A program made the translations under genes and the position numbers. The notes beneath the pieces were generated by a model, which saw only the letters and a list, made by a program, of their open reading frames with translations, was not told where the DNA came from and searched no databases. Shown here in pieces: positions 26,869 to 34,120 of a stretch of DNA of 64,000 bases. Source of the stretch: Sedimentisphaerales bacterium (GTDB lineage: Bacteria > Planctomycetota > Phycisphaerae > Sedimentisphaerales > Anaerobacaceae); assembly GCA_963708075.1 (NCBI GenBank), contig OY970194.1, positions 6,144,001-6,208,000 on the forward strand, in the 5' to 3' direction. Every line of letters begins with the position of its first letter. Positions within the stretch are counted from its first letter, which is position 1.

Positions 26869-27375
26869 ATGCGGATTGGGATTATTTCGGACACACACGA
26901 CAATCGGCGAAACGTCATGCAGGCAATTGAGATTTTCCGCACGACCGGCGTACAGTATATTCTACATGCGGGGGACATCGTGGCGCCGTTCACGACGAAG
27001 GCATTCGGCGAGCTGCGCAGCGCGAAATTCATCGCGGTCTTTGGAAATAACGACGGCGAGAAGCTCCTGCTGAAGCGCACCGTCGAGGACTTCGGAGGCG
27101 AGATTCACGAGTACTGCTACAAAGGCGAGCTGGACGGCCGGAAGATCTGCATGATGCACACGGACCACTTGGCCGAGGACGCGGTCAAGAGCCAGTTGTA
27201 CGATCTGGTCATCTACGGCCACACGCACCACCCGGACATCCGCCGGGAGGGCAGGACCCTGGTCGTCAATCCCGGCGAAGCGACAGACTGGCTCACCGGC
27301 TCCGGTCATCTGGTGATTGTGGACCTGAAAGACATGACCCATAGGGTCGAGCCGCTGGAGTGGTGGGTAGTATAG
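26869..27375 (+). CDS. YfcE/MJ0936-family metallophosphoesterase
   Basis: ISDTHDN, HAGD, GNND, YGHTH and NPG motifs. Confidence 0.92.
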   Translation: MRIGIISDTHDNRRNVMQAIEIFRTTGVQYILHAGDIVAPFTTKAFGELRSAKFIAVFGNNDGEKLLLKRTVEDFGGEIHEYCYKGELDGRKICMMHTDHLAEDAVKSQLYDLVIYGHTHHPDIRREGRTLVVNPGEATDWLTGSGHLVIVDLKDMTHRVEPLEWWVV

Positions 27376-27440
27376 TTGCGGATTGCGGATCGGTGTGTGG
27401 GCACTCAATCCGCAATCCGCAATCGTCAATCCGCAATCGG
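27376..27440. repeat. Inverted heptamer repeat (TTGCGGA)n / (TCCGCAA)n between convergent stop codons
   Basis: TTGCGGATTGCGGAT...ATCCGCAATCCGCAATCGTCAATCCGCAAT fills the whole intergenic gap. Confidence 0.8.
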
Positions 27441-28325
27441 TCAGCGGATCAATTTCTTGAAGTTCTTAAGGGACAGGTCGACAGCGGTCAGAGGGTCAAG
27501 ACCTTCCTTCTCTTCCTCGATGATGTACCACCTGGTGCCGCCTTTGCGGCAGAGTTGCAGGACCTCGGCCCAGGGGATGTCGCCTTCACCGATCAAGGCC
27601 TTCGGGTTCGTCTTGGAGTGTTCCTTGAGGTGGATCGTCGTGGCCCGGCCGGGATAGCGCTTCAGGTACACGAGCGGATCGCCGCCGCCGTCGAGGGCAT
27701 TGCCCGTGTCGAACTGCATGATGACGTCCTTGGTGGTGTTACTGGCAAGGAGGTCCCAGCCCGTTGTGCCATCGACGGGGGCGAAATCGTGAGCATGGTT
27801 GTGATAGCCGACCTGCATGCCGTGCGGCTTGACCTTCACGGCCAGCTCGTTGAATCGTTTGGCGTAGTCGAGCCAGCCCTGCTTGGGATTATCTTCCTTC
27901 GGCTGAAGCCACGGGCAAATCAGGTACTTGTTGCCGATTGTCTTGTTGAAGGCGATGGTGTCGGCGAGCTTGTTGTCGGCGAGGTCTGCCCACTGCGTAT
28001 GCGAGCCGCAGCAGACGATGCCGTTGTCGTCGAGGATCTTGCGGATGTCCTTGGCCGAATGGCCGTACCAGCCGGCGAACTCGACGCCCTCGTAGCCCAT
28101 CTTCGCCACCTTCGCGACCGTGCCGGACAGGTCCTTCTCCGCAGCGACACGGACGGAGTAAAGCTGCAGGCCGACAGGAATGACGCCTCTCTTGGGTGCG
28201 GCGGTTGTCTTGGTTCGCTCCTTCATACAGCCAGACCCCATAATGCCCGCGGCGGCCAGTGACGCTACGGTGGTTGCCAGGAAATCCCGACGTGACACGC
28301 TTGGATGGTTCGTCCCTGCTTTCAT
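27441..28325 (-). CDS. Tat-exported sugar phosphate isomerase/epimerase (AP endonuclease 2 TIM barrel)
   Basis: SRRDFL Tat motif; GLQLYSVR, GYEGVEFAG, YHNHAHDF, DTGN and HLKE motifs. Confidence 0.9.
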   Translation of the reverse strand: MKAGTNHPSVSRRDFLATTVASLAAAGIMGSGCMKERTKTTAAPKRGVIPVGLQLYSVRVAAEKDLSGTVAKVAKMGYEGVEFAGWYGHSAKDIRKILDDNGIVCCGSHTQWADLADNKLADTIAFNKTIGNKYLICPWLQPKEDNPKQGWLDYAKRFNELAVKVKPHGMQVGYHNHAHDFAPVDGTTGWDLLASNTTKDVIMQFDTGNALDGGGDPLVYLKRYPGRATTIHLKEHSKTNPKALIGEGDIPWAEVLQLCRKGGTRWYIIEEEKEGLDPLTAVDLSLKNFKKLIR

Positions 28326-28474
28326 GCTCCTTACCTCATCTCATCTCGTGGATGATCCGGTTTCGGCGGCGGATCCTTCGCCTCAACTGCCAAAGCTGAA
28401 CGGGCGTGATTCTATCCGGCGTGTGTCCCGCGGTCAAGTGGAATCGGCAAGGCCGTGTCCCGGGTGCGGGAGTC

Positions 28475-29305
28475 TCAGTAGTCTTTGAACCTGCGCATCC
28501 AGTCGGGCCAGCGGTCGCCGGTGACGCCACCGGCGCGGGTCCACTGGCCTCGGGCGTTGAAATCAGGACTCCAGTCGAGGGTCCAGAGCTCTTTGATGCC
28601 GACTTTGCGGACGGACCAGTCCATGAAGAGGGTGTTGACGAATCCGCCGTGACGCGGGATGCAGAAAGGCCTGATGCTGTTGCTGTTGCTGATATTGGGA
28701 TTTGTGGCGGCCTCGGTCTCGGTCTGTGGCGGGATGTCGTTATGGGTCGGATAGCCTGCCCACAGGGCGCCATCCAGCATGATCGGCACGTGGTTGCCGC
28801 CTCTCTTGTAGATGCTCGACCATCGCTTCTGCTTCGGTGGAGGCGTTGCCCCGTGGCCTTCGCCGCCATCGTAAGCGGGAGTAAAACCGTTGACCGCATA
28901 GCTGCCGGCGCGGTACGGGTGTTTCGGGCAGTACCAAGCCAGGTACGTGCCGCCGGCCCCCGTTCGGCTTGTCTTCCGCGTGGCCACCGGGCAGAACTCC
29001 TCGAAAGTGAAATTGTCAAGGTAATAGGCAAACTGCTGTGTCCGGCAGTAGTCCAAGGCATCGCGGTCGCGGAGGCGGCCCTCGTTGCTCTCGCCCAGCG
29101 TCGCGAACAGCATGCCCCACTGGTGCAGGTTCGCCGCGCAGACCGTTGCCTTTGCCTGTTTGCGCACGTTCTGCAGGACGGGCATGAGGATCGCCATCAG
29201 CAGCGCGATGACGGCAATGACGACGAGCAACTCGATGAGTGTGAACGCGCGGCGGCGGGCCCCGCCCCGCAAATGAGAAGTCCGACCCGTTCGACTCTCT
29301 GTCAT
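28475..29305 (-). CDS. Prepilin-type N-terminal cleavage/methylation protein (DUF1559 / H-X9-DG-like)
   Basis: RAFTLIELLVVIAVIALLMAILMP...CAANLHQWG; C-terminal RHGGFVNTLFMDWSV. Confidence 0.9.
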   Translation of the reverse strand: MTESRTGRTSHLRGGARRRAFTLIELLVVIAVIALLMAILMPVLQNVRKQAKATVCAANLHQWGMLFATLGESNEGRLRDRDALDYCRTQQFAYYLDNFTFEEFCPVATRKTSRTGAGGTYLAWYCPKHPYRAGSYAVNGFTPAYDGGEGHGATPPPKQKRWSSIYKRGGNHVPIMLDGALWAGYPTHNDIPPQTETEAATNPNISNSNSIRPFCIPRHGGFVNTLFMDWSVRKVGIKELWTLDWSPDFNARGQWTRAGGVTGDRWPDWMRRFKDY

Positions 29306-29442
29306 ATCTGTCCCTGTCAAGGTAGATCCATTATACCGCACAGGTTCTCGCCTGTGCAATCAAAACACTCCGCGTACACAAGCCGCGATTTCCTTTTCAT
29401 CTCGTACTTGGTAGACTACCGTGAGATAGATGGGGGTTCTGG

Positions 29443-30135
29443 ATGGCGTTTGCATACGAACGGGAAATGGCGGCACCGGCGAGCGCGTGGCTAGCTGCAC
29501 AGGAGCTGATGGTCAAGCGGGAGTTCCCGACGCCGTGGGGCGTCTGTGATCTTGTCGGCTGCTCGCTGAACGAGCTCAAGGTGCGAAAAAGATTGCTCCT
29601 GGGCCAGCGCAAAGCGCTGCGCTCGCAACTGCGGGTGCATGTGCTCTCGCTGATTCCCGACCGCAGCGAGGGACGGTCCATTAGCCTTGATGACCTGCAT
29701 CGCTGCTTCGGCGGCCACCTGGATCGCGGCCGGATCGAGGAGGAAATTGAGAAGCTTATCGAGGATCGCTTCGTGGAGCAGGTCGATGGGCAAACCTACT
29801 CCAGGCATAATCGCTGGGTACCTCTGCACAAGAGACTAATCGCGGTCGAGCTCAAGCTCACCCGCACGGACGATGTCTTCGTCCAGGCCGTCAACAATCT
29901 TGGGTTCGCGGATGAATCGTACGTGGCGCTGCCGGCCGACCGGGCCCGGCGGCTGGCAAAAAGTCAATCGAGAGCGGCATTCACCGCAAAAGGGATTGGC
30001 CTGCTGGCGGTCGGCCCCGATAGCTGCCGGGCGATTCTCAAAGCCAGGCCGATGCGCCGGCACGCGAACAGTCCCATCCAGCACTACTGCGTCGAGCGGT
30101 TCTGGCAACCGTACCTCAGGGGCGGCCGCCCCTGA
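29443..30135 (+). CDS. Predicted PD-(D/E)xK nuclease with inserted winged-helix domain
   Basis: E(7)...REFPTPWGVCDLVG [helical insert] LIAVELKL...QA...FADESYVALP...GIGLL restriction-endonuclease-like pattern. Confidence 0.65.
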   Translation: MAFAYEREMAAPASAWLAAQELMVKREFPTPWGVCDLVGCSLNELKVRKRLLLGQRKALRSQLRVHVLSLIPDRSEGRSISLDDLHRCFGGHLDRGRIEEEIEKLIEDRFVEQVDGQTYSRHNRWVPLHKRLIAVELKLTRTDDVFVQAVNNLGFADESYVALPADRARRLAKSQSRAAFTAKGIGLLAVGPDSCRAILKARPMRRHANSPIQHYCVERFWQPYLRGGRP

Positions 30136-30615
30136 CGAATGCGGAATTCGGAATGCGGAGTGCGGAATAGGACTACTTGCGCCCGTGGGTTCGTGCCGTC
30201 TTGATCGACGTGACGACCATGGCGAGAATCTCGTCGGCCTCACTCATCAGGCTCGACATGCGACTGGCCTTCATGATGCCGGCCTCAACAAGCAGCTCCA
30301 TCCAATAGGCGGACTCATCGCATTCCTCTTCGACAATGCCCATCTTCGCGACGAAATCGGCAGGCGACTTTGGGCGGCAAGCGGCGCGATAGTTCGCACC
30401 AACCGACGTACCGCAACGAAGCAACTGCCCGCCAATGACATCCGCCGCTCGCGATCGAGGTAATGCCTCGACAAGCCGGATGGTTCGTAGAGCAAACGCC
30501 TTTGTACGCTTTCTGAGTTCATTATTGTCCATGCACGGCATGGTGTGCAGGATTCGTCCCTTCCGCAAGTGTTCCCGTATTCCGCACTCCGTATTCCGAG
30601 TTCCGCATTCGTCAG
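30132..30615. mobile_element. Putative mobile four-helix-bundle cassette with 38-bp heptamer-built terminal inverted repeats
   Basis: 30132-30169 and the reverse complement of 30578-30615 match at 36/38 positions: CTGAC(GAATGCG-like)x4 GAATA. Confidence 0.65.
30173..30532 (-). CDS. Four helix bundle protein (23S rRNA IVP / bAvd-like family)
   Basis: LRKRTKAFAL...QLLRCGTSVGANYRAACR.KS.ADF..K..IVEEE.DES.YW.ELL, the family-typical sequence. Confidence 0.92.
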   Translation of the reverse strand: MDNNELRKRTKAFALRTIRLVEALPRSRAADVIGGQLLRCGTSVGANYRAACRPKSPADFVAKMGIVEEECDESAYWMELLVEAGIMKASRMSSLMSEADEILAMVVTSIKTARTHGRK

Positions 30616-31901
30616 AGGCTCATGAGCATGAGTTGCTCGGCAACTTTGCCGGGCTCGCGGACGCTGACGGAGCCGTTGGCCGACAAGACTCCCTTAGGCA
30701 TCTGAGGCAGGCGTCGGCCGAGGACGTATGCCTGCGAGAGGTCCTCGTACAGCCGCAAGGCCCGCTCCGTTGGCAGCGTCATGGCAAGCGTGTCGAGCCA
30801 CTCCTTGTAGAAGGCGGCAAGCTGGTCTTTGGCGACATCCTTGTTGGCCAGCACGGGAAGCTGGTCGAGCAGTTGCCGCAGACTCGGGTACATGCTGTCC
30901 GTGGGGGGCAGGTCGGCCAGGGCCTGTTCGAGCCACTCCCTCATCTCCGGGCTGGCAACGGCCATTCTCCTCAGCGGTGGGATCGCCAGTTTCGGGCGGC
31001 CCTTCTGGATAGGGCTCATTGGCGTGTAATACGTGTAGCTTGTTCCGATGCCCAGCGCAGGATGCTGGCACAGGCCGCGAACCCACAGCACGATGTTCAT
31101 GCCCCAGTACGGCCCCGCAATTACGGGCGCGTCCCTGGGGAGCTGCTCCCTGAGACCTTCGTGAAACGCGAGCAGGGCGGAGTACCGTTCGGTGAAGTTC
31201 TCGCTGAGGTTGTGGTCTGAGAGCGTGATGTCCACGACCCACATGCCATCGGCGCGGGCCAACTGGCAGTCGTGCATGGCCGCCTGTAGCTTGTCGTCAC
31301 GCTGAGGTTTACGGCGGAGAATGGTCGAGCTCGTGAAGACCACCGGAAGAATCAGTTTGACGTCGGGCTTCATCCTGTCCTTCCAGAGCCCCGCGGCCTC
31401 GGCGAGCATGCGGTTGATCTTGTTTCTGCTGCCGCCCGGCGGAATCGGCAACTGCGGCACCGAAATCCAGAGGGGCTTGTGCTCCATGCACGCATCGAGG
31501 TTCTCCGCGACGAACGCATTCAACTCATCCGCGTGCTGTTTGACCCAGTACTTCGGGTCCGTCAAGACTCGATACCCGGTGAATCGGCCGAACTGTCCGT
31601 ACCATCGCTTCCAGAGCTCGTATTTCCAGTCATCCTGCTTTGCCCCTTGCTCATCCAGCGGCCACCGGGCTTCAACGGTTTCCGGCGGCTCCGTGCCGAT
31701 ATCCATGGGCCAGGTGGTCCCGAGGATACAGTCGTAGGCGTCCACCGTCGCGTCCACCCACAGGGGAGTCCCCGGCTCGAGCAGCGGCACTGTCGCGGCG
31801 ATGGTTTCCAGCGGGACCCGCATGCAATGTGCGTCGGCGAAGTACTTCCTGGCGATCGCGCTGTCGCCCTCATTATTGATGAAAGGTATGTAATCCGCCA
31901 T
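30612..31901 (-). CDS. Hypothetical protein, probable TIM-barrel (TGT-like / beta-protein-like)
   Basis: Long ORF with alternating beta/alpha pattern (YIPFI, LWVDA, WISVP, LILPVVF, ADGMWVV, PVIAGPY, ALGIG); the fold assignment is inference. Confidence 0.55.
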   Translation of the reverse strand: MADYIPFINNEGDSAIARKYFADAHCMRVPLETIAATVPLLEPGTPLWVDATVDAYDCILGTTWPMDIGTEPPETVEARWPLDEQGAKQDDWKYELWKRWYGQFGRFTGYRVLTDPKYWVKQHADELNAFVAENLDACMEHKPLWISVPQLPIPPGGSRNKINRMLAEAAGLWKDRMKPDVKLILPVVFTSSTILRRKPQRDDKLQAAMHDCQLARADGMWVVDITLSDHNLSENFTERYSALLAFHEGLREQLPRDAPVIAGPYWGMNIVLWVRGLCQHPALGIGTSYTYYTPMSPIQKGRPKLAIPPLRRMAVASPEMREWLEQALADLPPTDSMYPSLRQLLDQLPVLANKDVAKDQLAAFYKEWLDTLAMTLPTERALRLYEDLSQAYVLGRRLPQMPKGVLSANGSVSVREPGKVAEQLMLMSL

Positions 31902-32018
31902 CGCCGCACCCCCCATTGGACTGTGTCGAGTCTATTCACCCCATACAGGCGTTTCCTCGTCTACGCTCTTATGTACGCAGCATTCCGGGGAGGTGTGCAG
32001 CTTTTCACACCCCGGGTG

Positions 32019-32723
32019 CTACGCGCCGCTCGCCTGTGCGTCGATGCACGACGGACGACCGGTTGACAACCCGACGGCCAGACTGACGCCGAACATCAGA
32101 AGATCCCAGGCCAAGGAGTCATTGCTCAACATGGAATGCCAGGTCGGACCGTAGTTTGGCGCCAGGAACCATGCCAGAAAGCTCAATGCCGACAGGAGGA
32201 TCAGTGGCACGGATCCGGTACGTCGCCAATGCGGCTTGGCCAGCGCGCCGATCAGCACGACCACCCACAGAATGACGCAGATTTGAAGAACGCCTCTGCG
32301 AACGAATTCGCTGAGCAGAAACTCGCGGGATTCCGGCTCGACGGGGATCTCTGTGCTATCAAGACCGTTGAATCCTGTAAGGATGTCATCACTAAACGTG
32401 AGGGCGAACGCGTACCCGCTGGCCGGATGGACATAGCGATACGTTCTTGTCGATGGCTGTGTATCCGAGGTGCTGTCAATCTCAGACAGGCTGCCGAATT
32501 GCCTTCTAAACTCATCGATGGAGACTCTCTGGAACAACGCGATCCGGACAAGGTCATCCGCCTCTCGGCCAAGCGCATCAGTGGCCTTGATCCGTGCGTC
32601 TCGCTCTCGGAATCGGCTATGTCTCAATTCGTTCAGGCGGGTCTTATAGGCGCCGACCATGACCGGGAGTGTTGCTGTCGCTACTACCAGGATTGTCAGC
32701 ACAAATGTATTTTGATTTCGCAT
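32019..32723 (-). CDS. Hypothetical membrane protein (1 N-terminal and 3 C-terminal TM helices)
   Basis: Hydrophobic segments; AAGGAGAG RBS upstream. Confidence 0.65.
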   Translation of the reverse strand: MRNQNTFVLTILVVATATLPVMVGAYKTRLNELRHSRFRERDARIKATDALGREADDLVRIALFQRVSIDEFRRQFGSLSEIDSTSDTQPSTRTYRYVHPASGYAFALTFSDDILTGFNGLDSTEIPVEPESREFLLSEFVRRGVLQICVILWVVVLIGALAKPHWRRTGSVPLILLSALSFLAWFLAPNYGPTWHSMLSNDSLAWDLLMFGVSLAVGLSTGRPSCIDAQASGA

Positions 32724-32986
32724 CCCAGTCTCTCCTTATATGCAACGCAGACGCCTGTGAATGCCCGATGCCGCAGCCGCAGTTTCCCGTTTGTAATACT
32801 CCACAAGTAACATTGTACCACCTTGGGGACCGGGCCACAAGTTCTCTGAACGCCTGTGTTCTGGGTGGTATCATGGGCCGGACCTGCAGGAAACGCACTG
32901 TCGCGGAAGTGAGGAGGAAGCTTTGCAAAGTCTCGATGGCGGGTTTAGAATATGGGCGATCTGAGCCGATTGAGTAATAGGACGCC

Positions 32987-34120
32987 ATGGAAGGCATGAA
33001 TACGTTTACGTACGAGTTTGAGCAGGGCCCGAACGGGCAGGCCCGGCTGGTCCTCAAGGGCAGGCTGGATAAGGATACCGCCGCATCGATCTGGCGGCAG
33101 AGCACGCAGAGCCTGCGCCAAGCCGAATCCGCCTTTCTGGTCGTTCAGGCCGGCGACGTGGAATACTGCGATGGCGCCGGCATCGCTCTGCTCGTAGAGT
33201 ACAAACGGATCCAGGAGCAGAACAAGGGGCGGATCGACATCCAGGGTCTGCGGCCTCAATTTCAGCAGTTGCTGGCCGTGTTCGAGATCGACCGCGTCAT
33301 ACCCCGGCCCTCCGCACCGGGATTTCTGCCGGGTTTCGTTCATTCGCTCGGCGTGCTGGCGGTTCGAATGGGCCGCGACTTCAAGGCCCAGGTGAATTTC
33401 ACGGGGGAGATCTCCGTCAAGCTCGTCAGGACGGTGCAACGTCCGGGCTCTCTTCGCTGGAAGGATATGTTCCTGATGGCCGAAAAGGCGGGAGCGAACG
33501 CGGTGGGCATCACTGCGCTGCTGGGCTTCCTGGTCGGCCTGATCATCGCCTTCCAATCGGCGGCGGCGCTGGAGGCTTTCGGCGCGGAGATCTTCGTGGC
33601 CGACCTGGTGGTCCTCATTCTTCTTCGCGAGCTGGGGCCGTTGATCACGGGCTTCATCCTGGCCAGCCGCAGCGGCTCGGCCTTTGCCGCCGAGATCGGA
33701 ACGATGAAGGTGAACGAGGAAATCGACGCCCTGACCACCATGGCCCTGGACCCGGTGCAGTACCTGGTCCTGCCCCGGATGATTGCGGCAATTCTCGTGA
33801 TGCCGCTCCTGACCGTGTTCAACGAGCTCTTCGGGCTCATCGGCTGCGGAGTGGTCATGGCCTCCTGGAACGTGCCGGTCGGGACGTACCTCGACAGAAT
33901 CAGGGAGGCGGCCACCCTGACGGACCTGTTCGGCGGCCTGGTCAAGACGCTCGTGTTCGGCACGCTGATCGCCGGCCTGGGCTGTCTTCGCGGCCTGCAA
34001 ACGGACACGGGCCCCAGTGCCGTGGGCGATTCCGCGACGCGGGCCGTCGTCAGCGGCATCATCGCAATCATTGTCGCCGACGGCGTCTTTGCCGTGGCAT
34101 ATTACTTCCTGGGGATATAG
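32987..34120 (+). CDS. mlaE: MlaE-family ABC permease with N-terminal STAS domain
   Basis: YCDGAGIALL STAS motif; RELGPLIT...RSGSAFAAEIGTMKVNEEIDAL. Confidence 0.92.
   Translation: MEGMNTFTYEFEQGPNGQARLVLKGRLDKDTAASIWRQSTQSLRQAESAFLVVQAGDVEYCDGAGIALLVEYKRIQEQNKGRIDIQGLRPQFQQLLAVFEIDRVIPRPSAPGFLPGFVHSLGVLAVRMGRDFKAQVNFTGEISVKLVRTVQRPGSLRWKDMFLMAEKAGANAVGITALLGFLVGLIIAFQSAAALEAFGAEIFVADLVVLILLRELGPLITGFILASRSGSAFAAEIGTMKVNEEIDALTTMALDPVQYLVLPRMIAAILVMPLLTVFNELFGLIGCGVVMASWNVPVGTYLDRIREAATLTDLFGGLVKTLVFGTLIAGLGCLRGLQTDTGPSAVGDSATRAVVSGIIAIIVADGVFAVAYYFLGI

Follow-up and report, generated by a model that had tools for sequence, protein, structure and literature searches.

How does a gene come to stand between two convergent genes in such a way that the repeats enclosing it also hold the stop codons of both neighbours? 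This question is raised by a short cassette in a stretch of 64,000 nucleotides from a Sedimentisphaerales bacterium (hereafter the window, to which the plain coordinates below refer). The initial annotation interpreted the cassette as a transposase-less mobile unit that inserts at stop-codon junctions without damaging genes. The locus bears on the movement of the S23p genes of rRNA intervening sequences (IVS), on the role of their protein and on the origin of intergenic heptamer repeats. Close relatives offer, at a single site, an allele without the insert, one with flipped cargo and a relic, next to a junction resolved to the base; with all four allele states and the resolved junction in one place, the mechanism is testable with one 500-bp construct.

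The cassette and its host genes

The 36/38 inverted repeat, the heptamer arms and the four-helix-bundle gene described initially were confirmed by a repeat scan and by profile cut-offs. The repeat pairs 30132-30169 with 30578-30615 (36 of 38 positions) and is interrupted by T30147:G30600 and G30155:T30592, both G.T on the plus strand; a longer version (30128-30169 with 30578-30619) pairs at 39 of 42 positions, the extra mismatch, C30131:A30616, being a wobble on the minus strand. The ungapped arm score was 33, compared with a maximum of 12 among 300 random pairs from the genome. The enclosed ORF (30173-30532, minus strand) passed the cut-offs of both TIGR02436 (86.7 bits vs 24) and PF05635 (62.1 vs 33.8), and a profile search found 2RLD (E 1e-17) and 2GSC as structure relatives; by analogy with these solved relatives, the protein is likely a pentamer. 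The outermost CTGA of each arm had been assigned to the TGA codons of the flanking convergent genes, and this holds: CTGA at 30132-30135 contains the TGA of ORF 29443-30135 (plus strand), and TCAG at 30612-30615 that of ORF 30612-31916 (minus strand). The features of the locus (with A and B denoting the host genes, and L017, L018 and L019 related loci) are:

29443..30135, plus strand: host gene A, 230 aa, ending within the insert, which contributes the final three codons and the stop (GRP*)
30116..30611, no strand: whole insert, 496 bp, from the joint 30115 to 30612 in a contig of run X1; the register slides along the 8-bp duplication
30116..30123, plus strand: left direct copy of the 8-bp target, TCAGGGGC, matching the right copy at 7/8 positions (8/8 in L019, TCAGAGGC)
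30124..30135, plus strand: 12 inserted bases, GGCC and GCCCCTGA, the latter being the target copied inverted; source of A's new TGA
30137..30169, plus strand: left heptamer arm, GAATGCG-type, from the repeat scan
30173..30532, minus strand: four-helix-bundle gene, 119 aa, TIGR02436/PF05635 by profile matches; inverted in L017
30533..30577, minus strand: 5' leader of the four-helix-bundle gene, flipped jointly with it in L017
30578..30610, plus strand: right heptamer arm, the sole arm remaining in the relic L018
30612..30625, plus strand: ancestral 14-nt A/B overlap, TCAGAGGCTCATGA; the right direct copy makes up its first 8 bases
30612..30614 and 30623..30625: B's stop and A's former stop, respectively, both within the ancestral overlap
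30612..31916, minus strand: host gene B, about 430 aa, conserved partner of A

No long direct repeats were detected by the repeat scan within 28000-33000, Rfam gave no match in 29900-30900, and a terminator scan found none. The promoter scan yielded a single weak site, overlapping the start codon. The genome holds 53 look-alikes of the left arm at up to 5 mismatches (both arms of this cassette counted), with mostly unrelated flanks. In contigs matching the arm alone, the match mostly ends at 30136-30137 and only few continue to 30128-30134, which indicates that CTGA is no fixed part of the repeat. Elsewhere in the window, a gene-less GATTGCG hairpin (27376-27440) spans the interval from the TAG of its left gene (27373-27375) to the stop of the convergent right gene (TCA, 27441-27443).

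Neither A nor B matched a Pfam or NCBIfam family. Gene A is predicted to comprise a PD-(D/E)XK-like fold and a winged-helix part; its structure model (pLDDT 91) best matched 3DNX and winged-helix proteins, and B matched unnamed ESM clusters only. As a guess, A and B may be a candidate two-gene nuclease module, perhaps of defence. A supposed identity of the host genes with sce7725/sce7726 was dropped, as there was no NCBIfam match.

Allele states and the insertion junction

A survey of the A/B pair comprised 95 loci (L002-L096), of which 83 distinct ones were kept after removal of one locus without A, three cut loci and eight duplicates. The cassette gene is not fixed among relatives: 78 of the 83 are empty, with overlapping 3' ends of A and B (72 recognized by the pattern, with B's end directly after A's, and 6 with other kinds of overlap), and the remaining five either lack B (2) or contain a cassette or relic (3). 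Among the 72 distinct junctions with both ends placed (window counted), the overlap is 14 nt long in 34 and 20 nt in 25. The right side of the insert in the window retains a 14-nt overlap (30612-30625), and fusing both direct copies in silico restores it and turns the end of A into YLRGS*.

The contig from run X1, which skips the 496 bases of the insert, differs from the window at 31 of about 180 bases left of the joint and at 4 of 74 right of it, and therefore represents the empty allele of a relative and not an excision product. L055 (87% identical DNA) is empty at the same base, and L020 and L022 are empty as well. The empty allele foreseen by the initial annotation thus exists in relatives, but its two stops do not abut, because the genes overlap. 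The empty alleles also bear out an inserted unit with no transposase gene inside, and both neighbours are intact, in keeping with the proposed insertion without gene damage. Precise excision in L055 was considered and found unsupported: flank trees placed this empty locus neither inside nor outside the filled group, and fit a loss as well as a never-filled state.

Besides the window, the cassette gene lies on B's strand in L019 (whose right end is beyond its contig). In L017 the leader and the gene are inverted between the same outer junctions, and the encoded protein is 90% identical to that of the window. The relic, L018, retains the left copy and the right arm, with about 200 unrelated bases in between. 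The window and L017 genes are sisters (SH support 99) and differ over 115 codons by 24 synonymous and 9 non-synonymous changes. Since the longest perfect arm matches are short (15 nt in the window, 20 nt in L017), the flip is unlikely to be an artefact of assembly. In the contigs of 8 runs there was no strand-change joint, the single skipping joint being that of X1, and they gave no sign of the excision or circles envisaged earlier. As to expression, run X14 yielded no more than short pieces. The cassette is inserted and invertible, with both orientations found between the same inverted repeats, in different lineages only. We infer that all filled alleles go back to a single insertion in their common ancestor.

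The left junction reads TCAGGGGC (30116-30123), GGCC, GCCCCTGA (30128-30135) and arm, and the right one arm and then TCAGAGGC (30612-30619). The insert is therefore bounded by an 8-bp direct copy, TCAGRGGC, matching at 7/8 positions in the window and at 8/8 with the left copy of L019. The 12 inserted bases give A a new stop, which is an inverted copy of B's; consequently only B's stop is ancestral. A direct match of 7/8 at the same offset occurred at 112 of 200,000 random places, and an exact inverted copy within 12 nt at 136 of 200,000. Positions 30116-30135 form a perfect palindrome of 20 bp; the 7.5 Mb contain 31 of these. L019 has GGCCGGCCTTAA in place of the 12 bases, which leaves the peptide unchanged and makes the palindrome imperfect; as its inverted copy is degenerate (GGCCTTAA), the perfect palindrome of the window may be secondary. 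Three features were absent from the initial annotation: the 8-bp direct duplication, the palindrome at the end of A and the inverted cargo of a relative.

Two further observations concern this site. A perfect 10-bp palindrome, GCTCATGAGC, lies in the target overlap (30618-30627) and is also present in the empty L020 and L022; it is a possible fold-back seed. In L021 (3150-3200), A terminates in AGCCTCTAA, followed by CAGAATGCAGG, which resembles an inverted copy of B's end with the trace of an arm, and B is absent within the 382 bases covered.

Heptamer arrays and family members elsewhere

The genome holds 735 period-7 arrays, which form 112 inverted pairs (at a threshold also passed by 44 of 600 random array pairs). 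Most are gene-less, giving about 100 gene-less hairpins, and 10 have spacers longer than 300 nt. An edge of the pair lies within 15 nt of a called stop in 51 of the 112, compared with 192 of 5000 random non-coding points, the gene calls coming from a crude codon model with a coding fraction of 0.79. A start is close by in 32 pairs, and 22 are flanked by divergent genes. The residual gaps of the pairs are short (median 35 nt vs 184), and the heptamer unit favours tight junctions. Placement within their own gaps would put 40.4 of 72 pairs near a stop and 50 were observed; the closeness to stops is explained largely by short gaps, and stop-codon targeting as such was abandoned as inseparable from this preference. 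A general duplication or inverted flank at the pairs was likewise dropped: direct flank duplications of at least 7 nt were found at 4 of the 112 (null 2.6%) and inverted ones at 5 (null 3.8%), which is no enrichment in a low-power, exact-match test that misses even the direct copy of the window site. About 14 of the 112 pairs lie wholly within called ORFs (e.g. C1:3058370-3058444 of this genome); some of these may be in-frame insertions and some false gene calls.

The gene family was present in all 24 genomes of the genus that were searched (121 matches), and 94 loci were analysed, with weaker, mostly partial matches left out. The inverted repeat score is at least 12 in 66 of the 94. Arm units are 7 or 8 nt long and site-specific, with no common terminus. 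The presence of inverted arrays at other family genes, expected from the initial annotation, was seen at 5 of the 6 family genes of this genome, each with its own unit, while enclosure of both neighbours' stops is particular to the window copy. Eight rows (SH 97) make up the window's clade; they are spread over six sites, at each of which the arms are GA(T/A)TGCG-like, and this indicates that gene and arms moved together. Many copies are old residents, a point against our main reading (below); the 21 ffs|dnaX loci in the 24 genomes represent one old insertion and, as kin, are not independent.

Several junctions exist in more than one state. At leuC|leuD, where 19 of 22 given junctions were read, 4 are filled and 6 contain hairpins of the same unit but no gene; one is empty, and the other 8 have different contents. 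These states are a decay series. The L118 site has 21 distinct junctions: 14 are empty, 2 are filled, 3 have arms without a gene, each from a different unit, and 2 are of other kinds; the last bases of the upstream gene are often repeated on the far side, too diverged to be counted. At the junction of L217-L238 (C1:189590 in this genome), arms of three different units are found in different genomes, a sequence pattern which suggests repeated occupation.

Both orientations of the gene also occur after ileS (G001 vs G020, 2 of the 23 genomes having the site) and after thiC (G007 vs G021 and G023, with a partial G005 copy; 21 read). Both are found at 3 of 4 convergent-type sites and at 0 of 11 co-directional sites (60 loci), with Fisher p 0.009, or 0.033 without the window's site; the comparison was framed post hoc after inspection of the data and leaves out a site that was ambiguous and a cluster of 5 that has no arms. 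The downstream neighbour of G007 differs, and the ileS pair could be two insertions.

In two places (C1:4880536-4880610 of this genome and L134:1553-1600), the downstream arm apparently encodes the N-terminal end of the following gene product; we take the genes that start in this way to be ddl and a gamma-glutamylcyclotransferase-like gene.

Routes of insertion and known systems

A unit resembling an rRNA IVS has made its way into junctions of ordinary genes; the probable route is DNA fold-back copying and not a targeting of stop codons. Our main reading, to which we give a probability of about 55%, is that fold-back (template-switch) copying of DNA at the arms made both the junction and the flip. 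The cassette would have been inserted at B's stop codon inside the tail-to-tail overlap, with 8-bp direct and 8-bp inverted copies of the target, and the same process would later flip or delete the cargo. Thanks to the direct copy, neither of the overlapping genes would lose its end, and the inverted copy would provide A with a new in-frame stop, so that the insertion could survive. The cassette gene would have no promoter of its own and would depend on read-through from the neighbour directed at it, and either orientation could therefore persist between convergent genes; against such a rule, L007, L134 and L136, of the window's own clade, are antisense within co-directional operons. The protein might, as a guess, bind the arms as single-stranded nucleic acid and aid the spread of the unit.

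We favour fold-back copying because template switching yields inverted copies of the flank as well as inverted spacers. In yeast, template switching between inverted repeats has been reported to homogenise the arms and to invert spacers of 2-5 bp (PMC8604942), which leaves a gap in scale to the approximately 400 bp inverted here. Homologous recombination between the 40-bp arms could equally produce the flip.

In a stronger form, which we regard as unlikely, the protein and the arms would make up a new class of autonomous mobile element that lacks a transposase, a recombinase and a reverse transcriptase (RT) of its own. The protein ring would grip its own arms at the replication fork and force template switches, by which the unit would be pasted into tight junctions with a few target bases copied both ways, letting overlapping genes survive. 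The same step would flip the unit, which could work as an on/off switch of operons; gene-less heptamer hairpins of many bacterial genomes would be what is left behind, and rRNA intervening sequences a special case.

Three other explanations were weighed against fold-back copying. MITEs and mobile insertion cassettes are short, have terminal inverted repeats and a short duplication, and contain no transposase gene. The cassette is like them in all of these respects, and a non-autonomous transposon moved in trans by a DDE transposase making 8-bp duplications, with the arms as its terminal repeats, would account for the direct copy (perfect in L019), the roughly 100 gene-less hairpins and the far-side remnants of the upstream gene's terminus at the L118 site. 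It is nevertheless rather improbable: unlike terminal repeats of a MITE, the arms are periodic and site-specific, with units of 7 or 8 nt and unshared termini, 12 extra bases with an inverted target copy are no DDE product, and the duplication does not appear constant, being 8 bp here, absent at L134 (where about 55 nt are replaced relative to an empty relative) and without a genome-wide excess in the low-power test. Empty sites of L134 and L136 were also sought in viral contigs, with no loci found.

An RNA-borne element, in which RNase III would cut the stem, an Avd-like protein would hold the RNA and a host RT would copy it into a gene end, has a comparably low probability. The stem is stable on the B strand (z -5.9), and in 30 of 38 loci no more than 20 nt separate the upstream stop from the start of the arms; in Coxiella, an IVS with terminal repeats and heptamers is excised by RNase III (PMC4990558), and PF05635 is reportedly homologous to Avd (PMC10053308). 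On the other hand, the arm ends are intact, with no RNase III-type trimming, and Avd is not matched by the family profile. The only RVT_1 match in the genome (C1:1191244-1192818, a 524-aa frame) is about 5 Mb from the cassette, which lies at 6.17 Mb, and by eye looks like a defence-type RT. The G.T mismatches of the arms are as described initially; their value as a clue to RNA-level selection did not hold up, since no G.U bias was detected on the transcribed strand across the cassettes (43 vs 31, p 0.20; 74 vs 62, p 0.35) and transversions dominate the arm mismatches. Moreover, every transition between inverted arms reads as G.T on one strand or the other, and the plus strand is antisense to the enclosed gene, so that the wobbles carry no weight.

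Finally, a passive passenger (a fragment from horizontal transfer joined at short chance homologies, with arms made by slippage and a protein irrelevant to spread) would fit the long vertical residence at several sites, the replacement-type junction of L134 and the abundance of gene-free heptamer arrays (735), but is quite unlikely given two independent 8-bp target matches that are improbable by chance, an arm type that tracks the protein clade over six sites, an inverted repeat scoring at least 12 at 66 of the 94 loci and some junctions occupied by different clades or units.

Among known systems, the closest is the 23S rRNA IVS of Coxiella burnetii, which has an S23p ORF, terminal inverted repeats and heptamers and is excised by RNase III; the cassette shares the protein family, a size of about 430-500 nt, the terminal stem and tandem heptamers before the ORF (PMC4990558). 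Unlike the IVS, it lies between two protein genes, is known from an empty allele, shows the target duplicated over 8 bp and also copied inverted, and carries its cargo in both orientations; its ORF is under purifying selection, whereas that of the Coxiella IVS was reported as decaying (PMC4990558). The cassette is thus built like an ORF-bearing IVS, yet is no member of this class, being outside rRNA. Insertions in rRNA have been described (10.1101/2024.02.27.582315).

An invertible DNA segment is one that occurs in two orientations between inverted repeats, and the cassette is like it in this respect, here between lineages only.

The GGGAATC heptamers of Xanthomonas and Nostoc also form intergenic arrays, often as inverted pairs near stops and rarely between divergent genes (PMC4692102), and the cassette arms are like them in being intergenic arrays in inverted pairs close to stops. 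Those repeats were read as G-quadruplex elements, in a main text free of the word 'helix' and hence of any link to this gene (PMC4692102); unlike them, the cassette arms bound a gene, and the gene-less hairpins are a decay series. The structure of PF05635 (2GSC) is reported to be homologous to Avd (4DWL), the accessory protein of diversity-generating retroelements (DGR) (PMC10053308), and the profile of the cassette protein matches 2GSC and 2RLD only. In contrast to a DGR, there is no RT beside the cassette gene and Avd is unmatched by the sequence profile; the cassette is not a DGR.

In the literature searched (subscription journals, supplements and spelling variants excepted), a repeat-armed cassette outside rRNA, its empty sites and its inversion are undescribed, and the available parts of PMC5524665 and PMC4679880 do not treat the cassette. 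What appears to be new is therefore a variant of the known rRNA-type unit in an ordinary gene junction, with the junction resolved to the base. Genes of the PF05635 family have also been reported inside cas loci, with repeats unmentioned in the accessible text (PMC3936711). In L120, L156, L159, L164 and L167, in which arms are absent, the family domain is apparently fused behind another domain.
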